From NCBI GenBank assembly GCA_038252405.1, contig JBBSAJ010000009.1, positions 3,670-67,669 on the forward strand: DNA of 64,000 nucleotides, written 5' to 3'. The first letter of the stretch is position 1. The number at the start of each line of letters is the position of its first letter. Positions 2,025 to 54,212 of the stretch are shown one piece after another. The position numbers were made by a program, and so were the translations under genes. The notes below the pieces were generated by a model. The model was not told the DNA's origin. It searched no databases and saw only the letters and a list, made by a program, of their open reading frames with translations. Source of the DNA: Actinomycetes bacterium (lineage in GTDB: Bacteria; Actinomycetota; Actinomycetes; Prado026).

Positions 2025-2915
2025 ATGACCCCCTCCTCGATCCCTCTCGACGACAATTCCAAGATCGCCCAGTACGCGCACCCGGAGCGGCTGGTCACCA
2101 CCGACTGGCTGGCCGCGCACGTCGGCGACCCCGGGCTCGTGGTCGTGGAGTCCGACGAGGATGTGCTGCTCTACGACACCGGTCACATCCCCGGCGCGGT
2201 CAAGGTGGACTGGCACCTCGACCTCAACGACCCGGTCAGCCGTGACTACATCGACAGCGCCGGGTTCGCCGACCTGATGGCCCGCAAGGGGATCAGCCGG
2301 GACACCACGGTGATCGTCTACGGCGACAAGAGCAACTGGTGGGCGGCCTACGCCCTGTGGGTGTTCAGCCTGTTCGGCCACGACGACGTGCGGCTGCTGG
2401 ACGGCGGCCGGGCCAAGTGGGTCGCCGAGGGCCGGCCCATGACGACCGACCCCGTCGTGCGGGAGCGCGCGGAGTACCCGCTGGTGCAGCGGGTGGACGC
2501 CCCGATCCGAGCCTTCCGGGACGACGTGCTGGCGCACCTGGGCAAGCCGATGGTCGACGTCCGCTCGCCCGAGGAGTACACCGGCGAGCGGCTGCACATG
2601 CCGGACTACCCGCAGGAGGGCGCGCTGCGCGGCGGGCACATCCCGGGGGCGAAGAGCGTGCCGTGGGCACGGGCCGCCGCCGAGGACGGCACCTTCCGAC
2701 CGCGGCCGGAGCTCGAGGCGATCTACCGGGACGAGGTCGGGCTGGGTCCGGACGACGACATCGTCGCCTACTGCCGCATCGGGGAGCGCTCCTCGCACAC
2801 CTGGTTCGTGCTCACCCACCTGCTCGGCTACCCGCAGGTGCGCAACTACGACGGCTCCTGGACCGAGTGGGGCAACGCCGTCCGGGTGCCGGTGGCGCAG
2901 GGGAAGGGCGCATGA
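2025..2915 (+). CDS. sseA: thiosulfate sulfurtransferase (tandem rhodanese domains, CysA/SseA-like)
   Basis: 296 aa with two rhodanese domains and the active-site motif CRIGERSSH. Confidence 0.8.
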
Positions 2916-3352
2916 GCGAGTTGGCGCTGCCCGCGGCGCTCGAGGAGGTCGTCGAGGATTTCGCCGCCGTGGGGCCGCAGGACCGGGTGCAGCTGCTGCT
3001 CGAGCTGTCCCGCGACCTGCCGCCGCTGCCGCCGCGCTACGCCGACCATCCCGACCTGCTGGAGCCGGTGCCGGAGTGCCAGTCGCCGCTGTTCCTGGCG
3101 GTCGAGGTCGAGCCGGACCGCACCGTGCACCTGTTCTTCTCGGCGCCGCGGGAGGCCCCCACGACGCGGGGCTTCGCAGGGATCCTGCGTGAAGGGCTGG
3201 ACGGCCAGCCGGCCGACGCGGTGCTGGCCGTGCCGGACGACTTCTACGCCCGGCTCGGGCTGGCCGAGGCGGTGAGCGCGCTGCGGCTGCGTGGGATGGC
3301 CGCGATGCTGGCCCGGATCAAGCGCCAGGTGCGGGAGAAGACGGCCGGCTGA
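2912..3352 (+). CDS. SufE-like cysteine desulfuration accessory protein
   Basis: ATGA overlap with the rhodanese stop, and the rhodanese-SufE pairing is conserved in Actinobacteria. The start is residue 192 of track ORF 2339..3352, and the SufE-like motif PECQSPLFL is present. Confidence 0.7.
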
Positions 3353-48167: not shown

Positions 48168-49424
48168 GTGGTCACTCTCGCGCTCACCGACGAGGACCGG
48201 CGCCGCGACCTGGTCCGGATGAAGTCCATCGCGACCGGCCTGCTGCTGCTGGCCGCTGTCGTCTACCTGGTTGCGAACTCGGCGGTCAACGCGGGCGCCC
48301 CCGGCTGGGTCGGGTACGTCCGGGCGGCCGCCGAGGCCGGGATGGTCGGCGGGCTGGCCGACTGGTTCGCGGTGACCGCACTGTTCCGCCGGCCGCTCGG
48401 GCTGCCGATCCCGCACACGGCGATCATCCCCACCCGCAAGGACGACCTCGGCCGCGGGCTGTCGGACTTCGTCGGCTCCAACTTCCTGTCCGAACAGGTC
48501 GTGCGCGACCGGATCACCGCGGTGGGTCCGGCCGGCCGGGCCGGTGGCTGGCTGGCGCAGCGGGGCAACGCCGAGCGGGTGACCGCTGAGGTGGCCGCCG
48601 TCGTCCAGGGGGCCATCGGGGTGCTCCGGGACGACGACGTGCGCGCGGTGCTCGAGCATGCCGTCGTCCGGCGGCTGGTCGCCGCGCCGGTGGGGCCGCC
48701 GCTGGGCCGGCTGCTGGCCCGGGTGGTGGCCGACGGGGCGCACGTGGGTCTGGTCGACCTGGTCGTGGACAACACCAACGTCTGGCTGGCCGCGAACCGG
48801 GCCATGGTGGTCGACGTCATCGCCAAGCAGGCGCCGCCCTGGTCGCCCCGCTTCGTCGACGAGCGGGTGGCCGAGCGGCTCTACGCCGAGCTGGTGCGGG
48901 TGGCGGCGGAGGTCCGCGACGACCACGCGCACCCGCTGCGCGGCTCGCTCGATGGATTCCTGCTGCAGTTCGCCGCGGACCTGCGGGAGGACCCCGCGGT
49001 CATGGCCAGAGCCGAGGGTCTCAAGCAGCAGCTGCTCGACCACCCCGACGTCCGCCGGGCCTTCGGCGGCCTGTGGACGACGGTCCGCACGATGATCGTG
49101 GAGGCCGTCGAGGACCCGGACAGCGAGCTGCGTCGGCGGGCCACCGCTGCGCTGGCCGAGTTCGGCCGCCGGCTGGCGGGGGAGCCCGAGCTGCGGTCGA
49201 AGGTCGACGGCTGGGTCATCGCCGCCGTCGTCCACCTGGTGACGAACTACCGCGACGAGCTCACCACGACCATTACCGACACCATCGACCGGTGGGACGG
49301 CAAGGAGACGGCCCGCAAGGTCGAGCTCGCGGTGGGGCGGGACCTGCAGTTCATCCGGCTGAACGGCGCTGTCGTGGGCGCGTTGGCCGGGCTGGCGATC
49401 TACACGGTCACCCAGCTGCTCTAG
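48168..49424 (+). CDS. DUF445 family membrane protein
   Basis: GTG 48168 (alternative ATG 48219). DUF445-like sequence. Confidence 0.5.
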   Translation: MVTLALTDEDRRRDLVRMKSIATGLLLLAAVVYLVANSAVNAGAPGWVGYVRAAAEAGMVGGLADWFAVTALFRRPLGLPIPHTAIIPTRKDDLGRGLSDFVGSNFLSEQVVRDRITAVGPAGRAGGWLAQRGNAERVTAEVAAVVQGAIGVLRDDDVRAVLEHAVVRRLVAAPVGPPLGRLLARVVADGAHVGLVDLVVDNTNVWLAANRAMVVDVIAKQAPPWSPRFVDERVAERLYAELVRVAAEVRDDHAHPLRGSLDGFLLQFAADLREDPAVMARAEGLKQQLLDHPDVRRAFGGLWTTVRTMIVEAVEDPDSELRRRATAALAEFGRRLAGEPELRSKVDGWVIAAVVHLVTNYRDELTTTITDTIDRWDGKETARKVELAVGRDLQFIRLNGAVVGALAGLAIYTVTQLL

Positions 49425-49446
49425 CCCGCTGGCTCCAGTCCGTCCT

Positions 49447-49462
49447 TGTGACGCCGTTCACA
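49447..49462. promoter_or_regulatory. Perfect CRP/GlxR-type box TGTGA-CGCCGT-TCACA inside a 9-6-9 palindrome TCCTTGTGA-N6-TCACAAGGA
   Basis: It lies about 60 bp upstream of the HTH-PocR regulator gene and the sulfur-oxidation cluster. Confidence 0.55.
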
Positions 49463-49522
49463 AGGACCAATGACCCTTTCTGCACAGGCAGCATCGGACC
49501 TAGCGTGTTCAGCGTGCAGGAG

Positions 49523-50209
49523 ATGCAGAACAGGCAGGAGCGGGCGCCGCGGGGCCTGCTCACGGCCGACGAGGTTCAGCAGCTCCTCGACATCGACCGC
49601 TCCACCATCTACCGGATGGCCGGCGACGGCCGGCTGCCGGCCGTGAAGATCGGCCGTCAGTGGCGGTTCCCGGCCGACCGGATCGCCGCGCTGCTCGAAG
49701 TCGGCACCCAAGCCCCGGCCGCGAACCCCGCGTTCGACACGACCTCGTCGCAGCCCCTGAGCCCGCCGCTGTCGGCCGAGCTCGCTGAGTCGGTGCTGGA
49801 CGTGGCCGCCGGTGCGCTGGACGTGATGATGGTCGTCACGGACATGACGGGGCGGCCGGTGACGAATGTGGTCAACCCGTGCGCCCGATTCGTCCACGAG
49901 TCCAGCGACCCCGCGACCCTGGCTGTGTGTATCGAGGAGTGGCGGCAGCTGGCTGACGACGTCCACTTCGAGTCCCGGTTCCGCCTCGGCCGCCTCGGTT
50001 TCGAGTGCGCCCGGGCGTTCATCCGGGTCGGCTCGGAGCTGGTCGGCATGGTGCTGGCCGGCGGTGTGGCCCCGGTCGGTGATGAATCCGGCGACCTGTT
50101 CCAGCTCGACCCCGGACGGCGCCAGCAGGTGCTGTCCACGCTACCCAAAGTGGCTGCGGCACTGTCTCGCGTTGCCACCCCGACGAAGGACCTAAGGAGC
50201 GCAGGATGA
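49523..50209 (+). CDS. transcriptional regulator: N-terminal excisionase/MerR-type HTH plus a C-terminal PocR-like sensor domain
   Basis: HTH LLTADEVQQLLDIDRSTIYRMAGDGRLPAVKIGRQWRFP. The C-terminal ~170 aa are PocR-like and carry 3 Cys. Alternative start GTG 49505. Confidence 0.55.
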   Translation: MQNRQERAPRGLLTADEVQQLLDIDRSTIYRMAGDGRLPAVKIGRQWRFPADRIAALLEVGTQAPAANPAFDTTSSQPLSPPLSAELAESVLDVAAGALDVMMVVTDMTGRPVTNVVNPCARFVHESSDPATLAVCIEEWRQLADDVHFESRFRLGRLGFECARAFIRVGSELVGMVLAGGVAPVGDESGDLFQLDPGRRQQVLSTLPKVAAALSRVATPTKDLRSAG

Positions 50210-51441
50210 AGCGACTGCTCGTGCTCGGCGGTGGAACCGCAGGCACGATGGCCGTGAACAAGCTGCGGCCGCGGCTGGCCCGCGACGAGTGGCAAATCAC
50301 TGTTGTCGACCCGAGTGACACGCACTACTACCAGCCCGGTTACCTGTTCGTCCCGTTCGGCATCTACCAGCCCGAGGAGATCGTGAAGCCGCGCAAGCGC
50401 TTCATCCCCGAGGGCGTCGACCTGGTCCAGGCCGAGGTCGACAAGGTCCTGCCGGAGGACAACAAGGTCCTGCTCGTCGGTGGCCAGGAGCTGCCGTACG
50501 ACTACTTGATCATCGCCAGCGGCACCACGCCGCGGCCGGACCAGACCCCCGGTATGGCCGATGACATGGGCGGCAGCGTCCACGAGTTCTTCAGCTACGA
50601 GGGCGCCAAGCGGCTGGCCGAGAAGCTGAAGACCTGGGAGGGCGGCAAGCTGGTCGTCCACCTGACCGAGATGCCGATCAAGTGCCCGGTCGCCCCGCTG
50701 GAGTTCAGCTTCCTGGCCGAGGCCTTCTTCACCGAGAAGGGCATGCGGGACCAGGTCGAGATCACCTACGTGACCCCGCTCGAGGGCGCGTTCACCAAGC
50801 CGGTGGCGTCCAAGCACCTGGGCGGCATGTTCGACGAGCGCAAGATCCAGCTCGAGGCCGACTTCATGATCGAGTCGATCGACCCCGAGGCCAAGAAGCT
50901 GGTCTCGTTCGACGAGCGTGAGGTGCCCTACGACCTGCTGGTCACCATTCCGATCAACATGGGCGCCGACTTCGTGGCCCGGTCCGGCCTCGGCGACGAC
51001 CTGAACTACGTCCCGGTGGACAAGGAGACGTTGCTCTCCAACGCCTACGACAACATCTTCGCGATTGGCGACGCGTCGAACATCCCGGCGTCCAAGGCCG
51101 GCTCGGTGGCGCACTTCTCGATGGACCTGTTCCCGGACAACTTCGTCAACCACATCAACGGCCGTCCGATGACCGAGAAGTTCGACGGGCACGCCAACTG
51201 CTTCATCGAGAGCGGGCACGGCAAGGGTCTGCTGATCGACTTCAACTATGAGACCGAGCCGCTCCCCGGCAAGTACCCGCTGCCCGGCGTCGGCCCCTTC
51301 AGCCTGCTGAAGGAGACCGAGATCAACCACTGGGGCAAGATGATGTTCCGCTGGATGTACTGGAACCTGCTGCTCCCCGGCAAGGAGCTCCCGCTGCCCG
51401 CCCTGATGTCGATGGCCGGGAAGCAGACGGAGGGCGAGTGA
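50206..51441 (+). CDS. sqr: sulfide:quinone oxidoreductase-like FAD-dependent pyridine nucleotide-disulfide oxidoreductase
   Basis: N-terminal LVLGGGTAGT FAD motif. Candidate redox cysteines lie in KCPVAPLE and HANCF. ATGA overlap with the regulator gene. Confidence 0.65.
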   Translation: MKRLLVLGGGTAGTMAVNKLRPRLARDEWQITVVDPSDTHYYQPGYLFVPFGIYQPEEIVKPRKRFIPEGVDLVQAEVDKVLPEDNKVLLVGGQELPYDYLIIASGTTPRPDQTPGMADDMGGSVHEFFSYEGAKRLAEKLKTWEGGKLVVHLTEMPIKCPVAPLEFSFLAEAFFTEKGMRDQVEITYVTPLEGAFTKPVASKHLGGMFDERKIQLEADFMIESIDPEAKKLVSFDEREVPYDLLVTIPINMGADFVARSGLGDDLNYVPVDKETLLSNAYDNIFAIGDASNIPASKAGSVAHFSMDLFPDNFVNHINGRPMTEKFDGHANCFIESGHGKGLLIDFNYETEPLPGKYPLPGVGPFSLLKETEINHWGKMMFRWMYWNLLLPGKELPLPALMSMAGKQTEGE

Positions 51442-52142
51442 TGACCGAGGTCGTCTCGGCCCCGTCGCTGGACCAGCGGCTCGACCTGCTCAGCGAGCAG
51501 GTCGGGGCCATCGCCGAAGAGCTGCGCCGGCAGCGCCAGAGCCGGGAGCAGTGGTCGGAGCTGGTCACCGACCTGACCCCGGTCACCAAGGGCGTCATGG
51601 ACGTCGCCACCCGTGAGCTGGCGGACCTGAGCGAGGACGTCAGCCTCGAGGATGCCGTTCGGTTCCTCAAGACGACGGCCCGCGAGCTGCCCCGGCTCGA
51701 GGCTCTGATGGCGCAGCTGGACTCGATGAGCCAGCTGGTCAGCGAGGTCATGCCCCTGGTCGGACCGGGGGTGGGCAAGCTCACCGACGTGATGCAGCAG
51801 CTGGACGACAAGGGCTACTTCATGTTCGCCCAGGGCGGCATGGAGATCGCCGACAAGGTCGTCACGTCCTTCGACCACGACGACGTCGTGGCGCTGGGTG
51901 ACAACGTCGTCCTGATCCTCAACACGGTCAGGGAGATGACCCAGCCTGAGGTGATGGGGATGCTCAAGCGCACCTTCGTCACCGTGCAGGAGGTCGAGGA
52001 GGCGCACGTCGAGCCCCCGTCCATGTTCGCGCTGATCAAGGAGATGCGCGACCCGCAGACTCGCCGCGGGCTGTCCCGCGTGGTGAGCATGCTCCGCACC
52101 GTCGGTGCCGAGCAGCCCGAATCGTCAACCCCAACCAGCTAG
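51438..52142 (+). CDS. DUF1641 domain protein (commonly partnered with SQR-type oxidoreductases)
   Basis: ATGA overlap with the SQR-like gene. Confidence 0.5.
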   Translation: MMTEVVSAPSLDQRLDLLSEQVGAIAEELRRQRQSREQWSELVTDLTPVTKGVMDVATRELADLSEDVSLEDAVRFLKTTARELPRLEALMAQLDSMSQLVSEVMPLVGPGVGKLTDVMQQLDDKGYFMFAQGGMEIADKVVTSFDHDDVVALGDNVVLILNTVREMTQPEVMGMLKRTFVTVQEVEEAHVEPPSMFALIKEMRDPQTRRGLSRVVSMLRTVGAEQPESSTPTS

Positions 52143-52158
52143 GAAGGTTCGAACCACC

Positions 52159-52473
52159 ATGCCCGTGACCACGATGAACGGCCGGGAGATCCACGTCGAC
52201 GACGAGGGCTTCCTCACCGCGTACGACGAGTGGGACGAGGACCTCGGCAAGGTCCTCGCCGCCAACATCGGCGTCGACATGACCGACGAGCACTGGAAGG
52301 TCATCAAGTTCCTGCGGGACGACTTCAAGGTGACCGGCGAGACCGCGACCACCCGCCGGGTGCAGTCCGTCGGCGGCTTCTCCACCAAGGACCAGTTCAC
52401 GCTGTTCCCGAAGAAGCCGGCCAAGAAGATGTCCTACATCGCCGGGCTGCCCAAGCCGCACGGCTGCGTCTGA
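52159..52473 (+). CDS. TusE/DsrC/DsvC family sulfur-relay protein
   Basis: C-terminus ...PKPHGCV matches the conserved DsrC/TusE penultimate-Cys tail. RBS AGGAAGG. Confidence 0.65.
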   Translation: MPVTTMNGREIHVDDEGFLTAYDEWDEDLGKVLAANIGVDMTDEHWKVIKFLRDDFKVTGETATTRRVQSVGGFSTKDQFTLFPKKPAKKMSYIAGLPKPHGCV

Positions 52474-52497
52474 CCACCGAGGACGGAGAAACAGACT

Positions 52498-53019
52498 ATG
52501 AGTGCACCCATCGTCCCGAGTTTCGGCGACGACGAGGAGACCGACCGCAAGTTCGTCCTCATCTGCTCCAAGGGCAACCTGGACATGGCCTACCCGGCCC
52601 TCGTCTTGGCCAACGCCGCCCTGGGTGAGGGCATCGAGACCCACCTGTTCTTCACCTTCTGGGGCTTCGACATGATCACCAAGTCCCGGATGAACGACCT
52701 GAAGTTCACGCCCACCGGCAACACCGCAATGCACCTGCCGATCGGCGGGATCCGGATGCCGCAGGCACTGGCGCCGCTCCCCGGCGTCCAGGCGGTGGCG
52801 ACGAAGATGCTCAAGGACCAGATCGCCGAGCTCGGTATCCCCGAGGTCCCGGAGTTCCTGGACCAGATCGTCGCGGCCGGTGGCCACCTGTGGGCCTGCC
52901 GGATGTCGGCGGACATGAACCACCTGACCGAGTCGGACCTGCGCGACGACGTCGAGGGCATCATCAACGCCTCGGACTTCATCGAGATGACCGACGGCGC
53001 CCAGCTGCTCTTCATCTGA
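52498..53019 (+). CDS. DsrE/DsrF-like family sulfur-carrier protein
   Basis: 174 aa with the LWACRMS conserved-cysteine motif. Confidence 0.55.
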   Translation: MSAPIVPSFGDDEETDRKFVLICSKGNLDMAYPALVLANAALGEGIETHLFFTFWGFDMITKSRMNDLKFTPTGNTAMHLPIGGIRMPQALAPLPGVQAVATKMLKDQIAELGIPEVPEFLDQIVAAGGHLWACRMSADMNHLTESDLRDDVEGIINASDFIEMTDGAQLLFI

Positions 53020-53032
53020 CCCCCGCCTGAAC

Positions 53033-53076
53033 TTGTCAGGGTGAGGACGAGCTATAGCTCGTCCTCACCCTGACAA
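53033..53076. terminator. Palindromic hairpin P4 (TTGTCAGGGTGAGGACGAGC-TATA-GCTCGTCCTCACCCTGACAA), 20-bp perfect stem
   Basis: It lies 14 bp after the dsrE-like stop and shares the TGTCAGGGTGA core with P1-P3. Confidence 0.65.
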
Positions 53077-53111
53077 CTGTGCGGGGGCGGGCGGCTGAGA
53101 TAGTGAGCGCC

Positions 53112-53432
53112 ATGCCCAACGTCCTCACTCGCTACCGGATCATGGCCTACGTCACCGGCGTCGGTCTGGTCCTGCTCGTCTGCGTCGCCATGCCGCTGAA
53201 GTACTTCGCCGACTCACCGGGCATGGTCCACGTCATCGGGATGCTGCACGGCTACCTCTACATCCTGTACATCATCGCGACGTTCGACCTCGGGTCCCGG
53301 CGGCGCTGGCCGCTGCTCAAGATGCTGCTCGTCATGCTGTCCGGCACGATCCCGTTCGCCGTCTTCTTCGTCGAGCACCGGATCGTCAAGGAGGAGCTCG
53401 CCCGGACTGGCAGCCCCGGCAGCGCCGCCTGA
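53112..53432 (+). CDS. DUF3817 family small membrane protein
   Basis: ATG 53112 is M12 of the track ORF. Three transmembrane helices; the protein is typically genome-adjacent to SURF1 in Actinobacteria. Confidence 0.55.
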   Translation: MPNVLTRYRIMAYVTGVGLVLLVCVAMPLKYFADSPGMVHVIGMLHGYLYILYIIATFDLGSRRRWPLLKMLLVMLSGTIPFAVFFVEHRIVKEELARTGSPGSAA

Positions 53433-54167
53433 GCCGGTGGCTGCCTCCTTGCGGACGGCGGCCGCCCACATCCACACCGTGGCCGCGGCGAACAGCCACC
53501 ACTGCAGCGCGTAGGTCAGGCTCTGCACCGACCAGTGGGTGGTCGTCGGCGGCAGCGGGGGAGGCACGGTGTCCAGCGCGGGTGTCGTGGGCGGCTGCTG
53601 GTCGGCGAGCAGCACCGAGCCGTCGTAGAGCCGGTACGGCCACCGGTTGACCAGGTCAGCGGTGGTGACCCGCTCCACCTGCCCGGCGGGCAGCACGCTG
53701 GTCATCCCGGCTGGCAGGGGGGTCTCCGAGGGCGCCAGGTAGCCGCGCACGGTCACCGGACCGGCCGGCGGTGCCGAGACGGTGACGTCCGGCTGTCCCT
53801 GCCCTGGCACCCAGCCGCGGACCACCGTGGCTGCCTGCCCCGCGGACGTCACGAGCGGGGTCACCACGTAGAAGCCGCCCTTGCCCTGCAGGTCGTGGCC
53901 TGGGGAGAGCAGCTGATGGGCCACGTCGTACCGGCCGGTCACGGTCACCGCGGCCCCGCGGTTGTCCGCCGTGACCAGGTTCTGCGCGCCCACCGCCACG
54001 GCCAGCGGCCGGGCCGTGCTCAGCGCTGGGGCGGTCGCCGGGGGGCCCGAGTCACGGGTGCGGGCCCGGTCCCACTGCCACCCGCCGAGCGTCACGAAGG
54101 CGGCGATAGCGAGCAGCGCCCCGACGTGGACGGCGAGCCAGCGGGGCTGCAGCAGGAACCGGTACAT
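53214..54167 (-). CDS. SURF1 family (cytochrome oxidase assembly) protein; the annotated 3' 219 bp overlap DUF3817 antisense
   Basis: ATG 54167 gives MYRFLLQPRWLAVHVGALLAIAAFVTLGGWQWDRA. The second transmembrane helix ends near 53432, yet there is no in-frame stop until 53214. Confidence 0.55.
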   Translation of the reverse strand: MYRFLLQPRWLAVHVGALLAIAAFVTLGGWQWDRARTRDSGPPATAPALSTARPLAVAVGAQNLVTADNRGAAVTVTGRYDVAHQLLSPGHDLQGKGGFYVVTPLVTSAGQAATVVRGWVPGQGQPDVTVSAPPAGPVTVRGYLAPSETPLPAGMTSVLPAGQVERVTTADLVNRWPYRLYDGSVLLADQQPPTTPALDTVPPPLPPTTTHWSVQSLTYALQWWLFAAATVWMWAAAVRKEAATGSGGAAGAASPGELLLDDPVLDEEDGERDRAGQHDEQHLEQRPAPPGPEVERRDDVQDVEVAVQHPDDVDHAR

Positions 54168-54212
54168 CGGGGACCACGGTACGTCCCACACCGCAGGTGA
54201 CTGCGCAGTAAC

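Follow-up and report, generated by a model that had tools for sequence, protein, structure and literature searches.

Locus and gene content

The 64,000-nt stretch of DNA analysed here (the window) comes from an Actinomycetes bacterium placed by GTDB in Prado026 (assembly GCA_038252405.1, contig JBBSAJ010000009.1, positions 3,670-67,669 of the forward strand), and its interval 49442-53087 holds a sulfur-handling gene cluster flanked by putative promoter elements and a 3' hairpin (Table 1). All five genes lie on the plus strand and encode, in order, a regulator with a helix-turn-helix (HTH) domain (here called REG), a type III sulfide:quinone reductase (SQR), a DUF1641 protein, a TusE/DsrC-family sulfur carrier and a DrsE_2 (DsrE2-like) sulfur carrier, a content that had been proposed in a first-pass annotation of this DNA and that profile searches confirmed. 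The junctions between successive genes measure -4, -1, +16 and +24 nt, the sqr start overlapping the REG stop codon (ATGA) and the DUF1641 gene overlapping the stop codon of sqr.

Table 1. Coordinates of genes and predicted elements of the cluster in the window
Feature	Position	Strand	Details
10-6-10 perfect palindrome	49442..49467		GTCCTTGTGA-CGCCGT-TCACAAGGAC; CRP-like core 49447-49462
DosR/DevR-like 20-bp box	49460..49479		core AGGACCAATGACCC at 49463-49476; overlaps right arm of palindrome
Upstream repeat-unit pair, 9 nt apart	49481..49493		TGCA 49481-49484, AGCA 49490-49493; -35 region; conserved in close relatives
-10-like hexamer	49501..49506	+	TAGCGT, then 7-nt GTTCAGC and GTG at 49514; implies leaderless mRNA
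Four-unit 9-bp-spaced array, putative REG operator	49505..49540	+	cores TGTT 49506, TGCA 49515, TGCA 49524, GGCA 49533
REG	49514..50209	+	alternative in-frame starts 49505, 49523; HTH_17 54.7 bits; PocR 22.4 bits
SQR, type III sulfide:quinone reductase	50206..51441	+	NCBIfam NF049943 642 bits vs cut-off 525; redox Cys160/Cys332
DUF1641 protein, HucM/ForE/Ncp superfamily	51441..52142	+	PF07849 30.2 bits vs cut-off 21, residues 187-222
TusE/DsrC-family sulfur carrier	52159..52473	+	Pfam DsrC 106.7 bits; C-terminal PKPHGCV, one cysteine
DrsE_2 (DsrE2-like) sulfur carrier	52498..53019	+	PF13686 98.4 bits vs 25; Cys23, Cys134
3' RNA hairpin	53020..53087	+	20-bp inner stem with 4-nt loop (53033-53076), 7-bp outer stem

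For comparison, the 80 best loci were drawn from at least 430 REG relatives in species-representative genomes; nearly all of these loci are labelled Actinomycetota or unclassified, and the carriers of REG include Nanopelagicales, Kineosporiaceae, Acidimicrobiia, Nitriliruptorales, Demequinaceae, Dermatophilaceae and Jiangellales. What is observed directly on this material is the identity of the genes, their synteny, and the conservation and geometry of the motifs. REG stands directly before a sulfur-carrier operon, with the order sqr-(DUF1641)-tusE/dsrC-dsrE2, in about 68 of the 80 loci. Of 72 related loci, 56 have the end of REG running into the start of sqr, by 4 nt in 40 cases and by 1 nt in the other 16, and at the non-overlapping loci the gap is at most 37 nt in all but two; REG is thus best regarded as the first gene of the operon, translationally coupled to sqr. 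Together with the tight junctions in the window, this overlap bears out the initial view that the genes form one operon. In the Nitriliruptoraceae, a spacer replaces the usual overlap (259 nt at L080, approximately 2740-3040, and 61 nt in L078), and that of L080 is built of tandem CCCCGACCTCGACCACC-like repeats.

SQR is absent from L014, L030, L074 and L077, and probably from the truncated L068, where REG heads another sulfur-carrier operon: tusA, an FlpD/MvhD-like gene and a DrsE_2 gene follow REG in L030, L074 and L077, and HdrA-like genes are present in L014 and L030 (both checked). Across this sub-clade (L030 2560-6633; L077 6840-11104; L014 7012-12437; L074 1325-2668), one or two HdrA-like genes with tusA, FlpD/MvhD-like and DrsE_2 genes are seen in place of sqr. 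The attachment of REG to both SQR and TusA-DsrE2-Hdr-like operons points to a dedicated regulator of sulfur-trafficking operons.

The regulator

REG (231-234 aa) combines an HTH_17 domain, a BldC/excisionase-like winged helix, with a PocR-like sensor domain of the GAF/PAS type. The PocR match (PF10114) falls just below the gathering cut-off of 23.9 bits, and the same domain is matched at E<=0.01 by all 18 aligned REG homologues (best 2.6e-8), so the assignment holds at the family level. Three cysteines (Cys126, Cys142 and Cys168) are invariant in the family alignment. In the structure model, both domains are confidently predicted and residues 1-15 are modelled as disordered; the nearest solved structure to the HTH is DNA-bound BldC (6ama; 33% identity, TM-score 0.78 over the target, root-mean-square deviation 1.4 A), while the model as a whole resembles the two-domain IclR architecture with a GAF/PAS-like sensor fold. 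The NCBIfam HTH_BldC model gives REG 18.5 bits against a cut-off of 77.

The claim that this regulator falls outside the types known to control SQR has held. Pfam and NCBIfam searches of REG returned only HTH_17/excisionase and PocR, with no CsoR-like, ArsR or sigma-54 enhancer-binding domain, and its linkage to sulfur operons is as widespread as described above. REG homologues populate more than 1,100 protein clusters, with no functional name among those listed, and literature searches combining PocR with sulfide or SQR, and PocR with excisionase, returned no match and no description of the family, which appears to be new.

The signal perceived by REG is open to more than one reading. Rather than sulfane sulfur, REG might sense oxygen, redox state or a metal via a metal or Fe-S centre that the three cysteines build, or else a small organic ligand, as proposed for PocR. 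The location of the invariant cysteines within a GAF/PAS-like pocket domain favours such a view, as do the ties of PocR domains in the literature to small-molecule sensing. We nevertheless consider it unlikely, given that the REG family is associated exclusively with sulfur-carrier operons, of either the SQR or the TusA-DsrE2-Hdr-like kind, and that, to our knowledge, the known SQR regulators all rely on cysteine persulfidation or polysulfide bridges.

A 9-bp TGCA array over a predicted leaderless start

A scan of 49000-53500 for sigma-70 promoters and intrinsic terminators returned no match, as expected for a high-GC actinobacterium, and the promoter was delineated instead by comparing loci; the model presented for 49442-49540 rests on 81 upstream regions aligned on the HTH domain, within 870 kb of related loci in all. 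At 68 of these 81 loci, a TAnnnT hexamer precedes the in-frame ATG or GTG of REG by 6-8 nt (7 in nearly all), which is the usual layout of leaderless actinobacterial promoters. In the 120 nt upstream of the HTH domain, TGCA occurs at a density of 33.5 per kb, as against 2.8-5.3 per kb in controls, and the spacings between units are mainly 9, 18, 27 and 36 nt. Three or more consecutive GCA cores 9 nt apart were found in 70 of the 81 loci and in none of the controls, and strings of three or more exact TGCA units occur, within the 870 kb, only at REG promoters or at the tusA second promoters of L030, L068, L074 and L077. The array in the window covers the -10 element, the predicted transcription start and the first REG codons.

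On DNA, BldC occupies direct repeats of 9 bp in a head-to-tail manner, and the number of repeats varies (PMC5859096). Given that the REG HTH is nearest to BldC, it is simplest to suppose that REG forms multimers along the TGCA array, which is probably its operator, and represses its own operon. The overlap of the array with the first codons would also account for an odd conserved N-terminus, MQxMQ, encoded by ATGCAG repeats.

That same overlap admits the converse explanation, namely that the 9-nt periodicity comes from selection for a repeated (M/V)(Q/H)x peptide at the N-terminus of REG and not for a DNA operator, since the array can be read in the REG frame with no stop codon and yields N-termini such as MQEMQNRQ. 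This is very unlikely: the same arrays stand about 190 nt upstream of the TusA domain at the four second promoters, many TGCA units precede the start codon or are not in its frame (spacings of 16, 19, 25 and 28 nt), T-G-C-A is conserved irrespective of the first codon base (A, C or G) or of whether the second codon gives Q or H, and the residues concerned belong to the stretch modelled as disordered.

Searches for a CsoR/CstR operator did not yield a conserved element: the pattern ATACCC...GGGTAT lies near few loci only (e.g., L002, L003, L068 and L077) and is absent from the window, and most of its matches fall within the coding sequence of the SQR YYQPGY motif. Separately, CsoR/CstR-type operators (ATACCC-N-GGGGTAT) were recorded at L002 3445-3461, L003 5975-5991, L068 approximately 1715, L077 approximately 5846, L023 5509 and 11217, L027 3398, and L064 3083 and 3509. 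Those of L002 and L003 sit inside the REG promoter, between the DevR-like box described below and the -10 element, which hints at extra control by a CstR-like persulfide sensor in these lineages.

A DosR/DevR-like box at a fixed distance from the predicted start

A second element lies immediately upstream. A 14-bp inverted repeat of consensus GGGACCTTnGGCCC is present with at most three mismatches in 40 of the 81 upstream regions, compared with one or two of 81 in controls, and the box of the window is the sole zero-mismatch match to RGGACYWWNGRCCC across its length. The 3' edge of the window box is 34 nt from the inferred start (centre at approximately -44.5); likewise, 38 of 60 promoters have this edge either 33 nt (27 loci) or 34 nt (11) away from their predicted start. 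Base frequencies taken at this fixed position, with no motif search involved, spell GGGAC...G.CCC, with G4G5G6A7C8 at 0.70-0.92 and G13.C15C16C17 at 0.66-0.82. Neither this box nor the TGCA array figured in the initial picture of the promoter, which was to that extent incomplete.

In Mycobacterium tuberculosis, the C-terminal domain of DevR, as a dimer, contacts G4G5G6A7C8T9 in each half of a 20-bp palindrome, and every one of the seven promoters whose start has been mapped has its proximal Dev box 33-34 nt away from that start (PMC3177182). The contact motif and the spacing together make a DosR-type response regulator, acting from a class II-like position, the best candidate binder of the box. 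Moreover, M. tuberculosis DosS binds H2S (PMC9062744), which suggests a plausible route from sulfide to the operon.

The inverted repeat could alternatively be bound by a REG dimer at GGGACC...GGCCC, DosR not being involved, and the TGCA array would then be occupied by another factor or constitute mere promoter context. The repeat accompanies REG genes, second promoters included; sensor-domain regulators as a rule bind inverted repeats as dimers, and the whole REG model is IclR-like. The presence of the DevR contact motif at the DevR-specific spacing of 33-34 nt, as well as the resemblance of the REG HTH to BldC, a user of 9-bp direct repeats, renders this assignment unlikely, and a DosR-type binder is preferred.

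The CRP-like box and its palindrome

Further upstream, TGTGACGCCGTTCACA at 49447-49462 conforms exactly to TGTGA-N6-TCACA, as had been claimed. It is the sole exact match in the window (0.04 expected) and remains the sole match with one mismatch allowed (0.89 expected). The surrounding symmetry, initially given as 9-6-9, is in fact 10-6-10. Five relatives with a REG of 87-94% identity retain the GTGAC-N5-TCACA core but not the outer left arm of the palindrome, whereas the outer right arm is conserved because it forms part of the DevR-like box; the perfect symmetry is consequently, in part, coincidental. Among more distant loci, boxes matching at least eight of ten positions occur in 10 of 79 (12.7%), compared with 1.8% of control windows (about 7-fold, Fisher p = 3e-6). 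The four tusA second promoters repeat the order of elements: AGTGA-N6-TCACA, 8 nt, the DevR-like box, about 18 nt and the TGCA array. A putative Crp/Fnr-family input thus does belong to the module, though only in certain lineages.

The first-pass annotation had gone further and taken the palindrome as the main operator, bound by cAMP-CRP (Crp/GlxR), with Crp input combined with that of the PocR-type regulator. The exactness of the site, the retention of its core in the five close relatives, the enrichment upstream of REG genes with recurrence at the second promoters, and a centre at approximately -59.5 from the inferred transcription start, near the class I activator position, all speak for this model. 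As the main control element, however, the box is poorly distributed: it is found in only those 10 of 79 distant loci, its spacing from the promoter varies (approximately -59.5, -66.5 and -76.5) without helical phasing, the outer arms are not conserved, and its conservation falls far short of that of the TGCA array and of the DevR-like box. The sequence does not decide which protein binds the palindrome, and since the site also fits a Rex operator with one mismatch, cAMP-CRP is one candidate and not a conclusion. The box itself has therefore stood, and its role as the principal operator is possible but doubtful.

Rex, the NADH/NAD+-sensing repressor of respiratory genes, recognises the consensus TTGTGAA-N4-TTCACAA. 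From this, TTGTGACGCCGTTCACAA departs at one position, and it is the only such match in the window even with three mismatches allowed (0.16 expected); the passage of electrons from SQR into the respiratory chain would also suit a Rex regulon. Yet the flanking T/A positions that distinguish Rex from CRP sites are not kept in relatives, which read TGGTGAC (L081) and CTGTGAC (L087); the equivalent boxes of the second promoters read AGTGAG/GTCACAG; position 7 is a conserved C and not A; and the site stands upstream of the core promoter, not over it. As the Rex-specific positions are unconserved, Crp is ranked above Rex, and a Rex operator appears quite improbable.

A purely structural role for the palindrome, as a hairpin that terminates transcription of the DUF445 gene upstream (the stop codon of which runs to 49424), is most unlikely. 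The palindrome does begin 18 nt after that stop codon on the same strand, and it folds at -16.3 kcal/mol (z = -4.2). Nonetheless, the changes in its left arm among close relatives (TTGTGA to TGGTGA or CTGTGA) are uncompensated, TCACAA remaining unchanged, which argues against an RNA hairpin; in addition, there is no U tract, and the right arm owes its conservation to the DevR-like box to which it belongs.

SQR and the DUF1641 protein

Cys160 (IKCPVAP) and Cys332 (HANCFIE) of SQR align with the redox pair of human SQOR, and each is a cysteine wherever its position is aligned (68 and 63, respectively, of the 71 loci examined); the conserved redox cysteines on which the identification of the SQR-like protein hinged are therefore both present. 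The best NCBIfam model, NF049943, is named for a selenoprotein subtype of type III SQR, which implies that close homologues elsewhere carry selenocysteine, presumably at one of the redox positions; the SQR of the window has cysteine at both.

The second protein of interest had been listed simply as a domain of unknown function, a description that has been overtaken, as DUF1641 is now known as a quinone-transport scaffold: the family members HucM, ForE and Ncp form membrane-docking tubes that carry menaquinone to the Huc hydrogenase, formate dehydrogenase and NDH-2, respectively (PMC13524794). The DUF1641 protein described here (233 aa) matches ForE1 weakly (8rqz, E = 0.039). The net charge of the C-terminal amphipathic region of SQR averages 0.0 where DUF1641 is present (range -2 to +2, n=55) and +6.6 where it is absent (range 0 to +9, n=9), a difference with p = 1e-5 that, not being corrected for phylogeny, is suggestive only. 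Nine loci lack DUF1641 between sqr and dsrC (L034, L056, L063, L066, L070, L012, L061, L062 and L071, most of them Demequinaceae), and their SQRs have strongly basic C-termini such as MSMRGKRRPAGD. By analogy with HucM, ForE and Ncp, the DUF1641 protein is probably the quinone-delivery and membrane-docking scaffold of SQR, a role that suggests an SQR-DUF1641 complex, to which the charge covariation lends indirect support. An SQR-like enzyme is paired with DUF1641 in Ignicoccus hospitalis (Iho_0672/Iho_0673; PMC3149612), such that the association of the two families reaches beyond Actinomycetota; no paper describing the SQR-DUF1641 pairing was found, and the pairing appears to be new.

Sulfur carriers and the 3' hairpin

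The TusE/DsrC protein has a single cysteine as its next-to-last residue, conserved in 65 of 65 loci. Strict DsrC proteins carry two C-terminal cysteines, CysA and CysB, and the presence of only the next-to-last one marks the protein as TusE-like. The DrsE_2 protein passes PF13686 and scores 102 bits on the DsrE2 equivalog model NF047629 (below its cut-off of 210); its Cys23 and Cys134 are retained wherever the position is aligned (65 of 65 and 63 of 63 loci, respectively). With the redox pair of SQR, the TusE cysteine and both DrsE_2 cysteines all conserved, the proposal of a persulfide-handling module is supported.

The cluster closes with the hairpin noted initially for its 20-bp stem, which folding confirmed and extended by an outer stem of 7 bp. 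Its arms of 22 nt are perfectly complementary (53033-53076), and it folds at -60 kcal/mol (z = -9.4) with no U tract. In relatives at 87% identity, the stem is kept via A-U to G-C and G-C to U.G changes, and since the latter pairs only in RNA of the plus strand, the element is better explained as a 3' RNA hairpin than as a DNA site. Its probable role is to terminate the operon transcript or to stabilise its 3' end. A search of 49300-53300 against Rfam gave no match at E<=1, and a search of the whole window for similar hairpins found none, this 3' palindrome being the only long perfect one. Beyond the hairpin, a DUF3817 gene (Pfam 101 bits; 53112-53432, plus strand) appears to overlap the 3' end of a convergent SURF1 gene (53214-54176, minus strand) by about 219 nt; on the near-identical contigs L092 and L093, the gene caller reported SURF1 only and no DUF3817.

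Proposed mechanism

Taken together, these elements may form an autoregulated, leaderless reg-sqr-duf1641-tusE-dsrE2 operon with a composite promoter, in which an array bound by REG, a DosR-type box and a CRP-family box are combined, a scheme to which we give an even chance. To judge from family membership, type III SQR would oxidise sulfide and pass the electrons to menaquinone, the DUF1641 protein would serve it as a quinone-delivery and membrane-docking scaffold, and the sulfane sulfur produced would be handed to the DsrE2-like and TusE-like carriers. A response regulator of the NarL family, bound at the DosR/DevR-like box, which overlaps a weak -35 region, would switch the operon on under hypoxia or sulfide, and the CRP-family box at approximately -59.5 would provide an extra input in some lineages. 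REG, assembled head to tail as BldC on the 9-bp TGCA units over the -10 element, the start and the first codons, would repress the operon and would leave the DNA once its cysteine-bearing PocR-like domain had reacted with sulfide-derived sulfane sulfur or with another redox signal.

Several points weigh against this scheme. We infer the binder of each site, the direction of regulation and the signal, and a pattern search of the window for a LuxR-type response regulator (DosR-type) or a Crp gene returned none. The DevR-like box of the window, AGGACCAATGACCC, is a divergent, weaker variant, with only 10 of 20 positions fitting the M. tuberculosis consensus. It is also the one recognisable box in the window, whereas DevR promoters of M. 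tuberculosis always have at least two in tandem (PMC3177182); two DevR-like boxes were seen in some of the loci (L024, L053, L061 and L079). The same box could instead be the operator of REG itself. The array of the window is likewise weak, consisting of two exact TGCA units with degenerate flanking units, and its palindromic core makes the units near-symmetric, unlike the asymmetric repeats of BldC; as the array is in frame with REG, part of its conservation could act on the peptide. Instead of a persulfide switch, the three cysteines of REG may represent a general PocR trait, perhaps a site for a metal or an Fe-S cluster. Lastly, the AlphaFold monomer of the DUF1641 protein (mean predicted local distance difference test score, pLDDT, of 51) is too poor for comparison with HucM, ForE or Ncp.

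A bolder generalisation can be put forward tentatively. HTH_17-PocR proteins could be a new and widespread family of actinobacterial sensors of reactive sulfur species, the first head-to-tail regulators of the BldC type to carry a ligand-sensing domain, each repressing its own leaderless operon at a 9-bp TGCA array; their operons would be activated at the same promoter through a DosR-type two-component system in response to hypoxia or H2S, and their SQR would form a complex with DUF1641 that draws quinone from the membrane. Besides the regulator family and the SQR-DUF1641 pairing, the BldC-like 9-bp array and the DosR-type box placed as in M. tuberculosis also appear to be new.

Significance and comparison with known systems

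SQR operons for the detoxification or respiration of sulfide are known, whereas their control in environmental Actinomycetota is not, and REG offers for this purpose a regulator family with at least 430 relatives in species-representative genomes and a readable putative operator. Should the DosR-type box prove real, H2S sensing by DosS, so far a matter of M. tuberculosis, would be tied to a sulfide-oxidising enzyme. Similarly, if SQR and DUF1641 do form a complex, sulfide oxidation would join hydrogenase, formate dehydrogenase and NDH-2 among the systems to which the principle of the quinone-transport scaffold applies.

The metabolic module is a variation on a known one, given that a type III SQR-TusA-DsrE2 operon induced by H2S has been described in Methylacidiphilum (PMC10205796). 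The Methylacidiphilum fumariolicum operon likewise places sulfur-carrier genes after a type III SQR gene, although it has TusA instead of TusE/DsrC and, as described, includes neither a DUF1641 gene nor an HTH_17-PocR regulator.

Among the regulators of such modules, CstR, SqrR/BigR and FisR resemble REG in being dedicated regulators encoded beside sqr or sulfurtransferase genes and in having conserved cysteines. Their folds (CsoR-like, ArsR and sigma-54 enhancer-binding protein, respectively) are unrelated to the HTH_17 and PocR-like domains of REG, which in addition is encoded by the first gene of its operon with translational coupling to sqr, and whose sensing function is putative. The likeness to Streptomyces BldC, a small MerR-like/HTH_17 regulator, lies in the HTH fold (6ama) and in an operator built of a variable number of 9-bp units. 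BldC, however, is a single domain of 68 residues without a sensor, to which REG adds the PocR-like domain with three cysteines, and the BldC repeats are asymmetric and AT-rich (AATTnnnnC), while those at REG loci have the palindromic TGCA core.

The DevR/DosR promoters of M. tuberculosis share with the REG loci the GGGAC(T/C) half-site in an inverted repeat and a 3' edge 33-34 nt from the start (a predicted start here), and there is a likeness in the signals as well, DosS sensing hypoxia, NO, CO and H2S (PMC9062744). They differ in having two to four tandem boxes, against one clear box in the window, and the consensus at REG loci prefers C at position 9 and G at position 14, unlike that of M. 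tuberculosis; no SQR operon is found among the DevR promoters in Table 1 of PMC3177182. Finally, the Ndh-Ncp, Huc (HucM) and ForCE (ForE) systems resemble the present cluster in that a DUF1641 gene directly follows the gene of a quinone-reducing enzyme. In the present cluster, the partner enzyme is an SQR, and the DUF1641 protein reported here is longer (233 aa) and matches ForE weakly. A parallel is offered by Ndh, a partner of Ncp in a complex and itself devoid of key residues for membrane interaction, much as the C-terminal region of SQRs accompanied by DUF1641 has lost positive charge.

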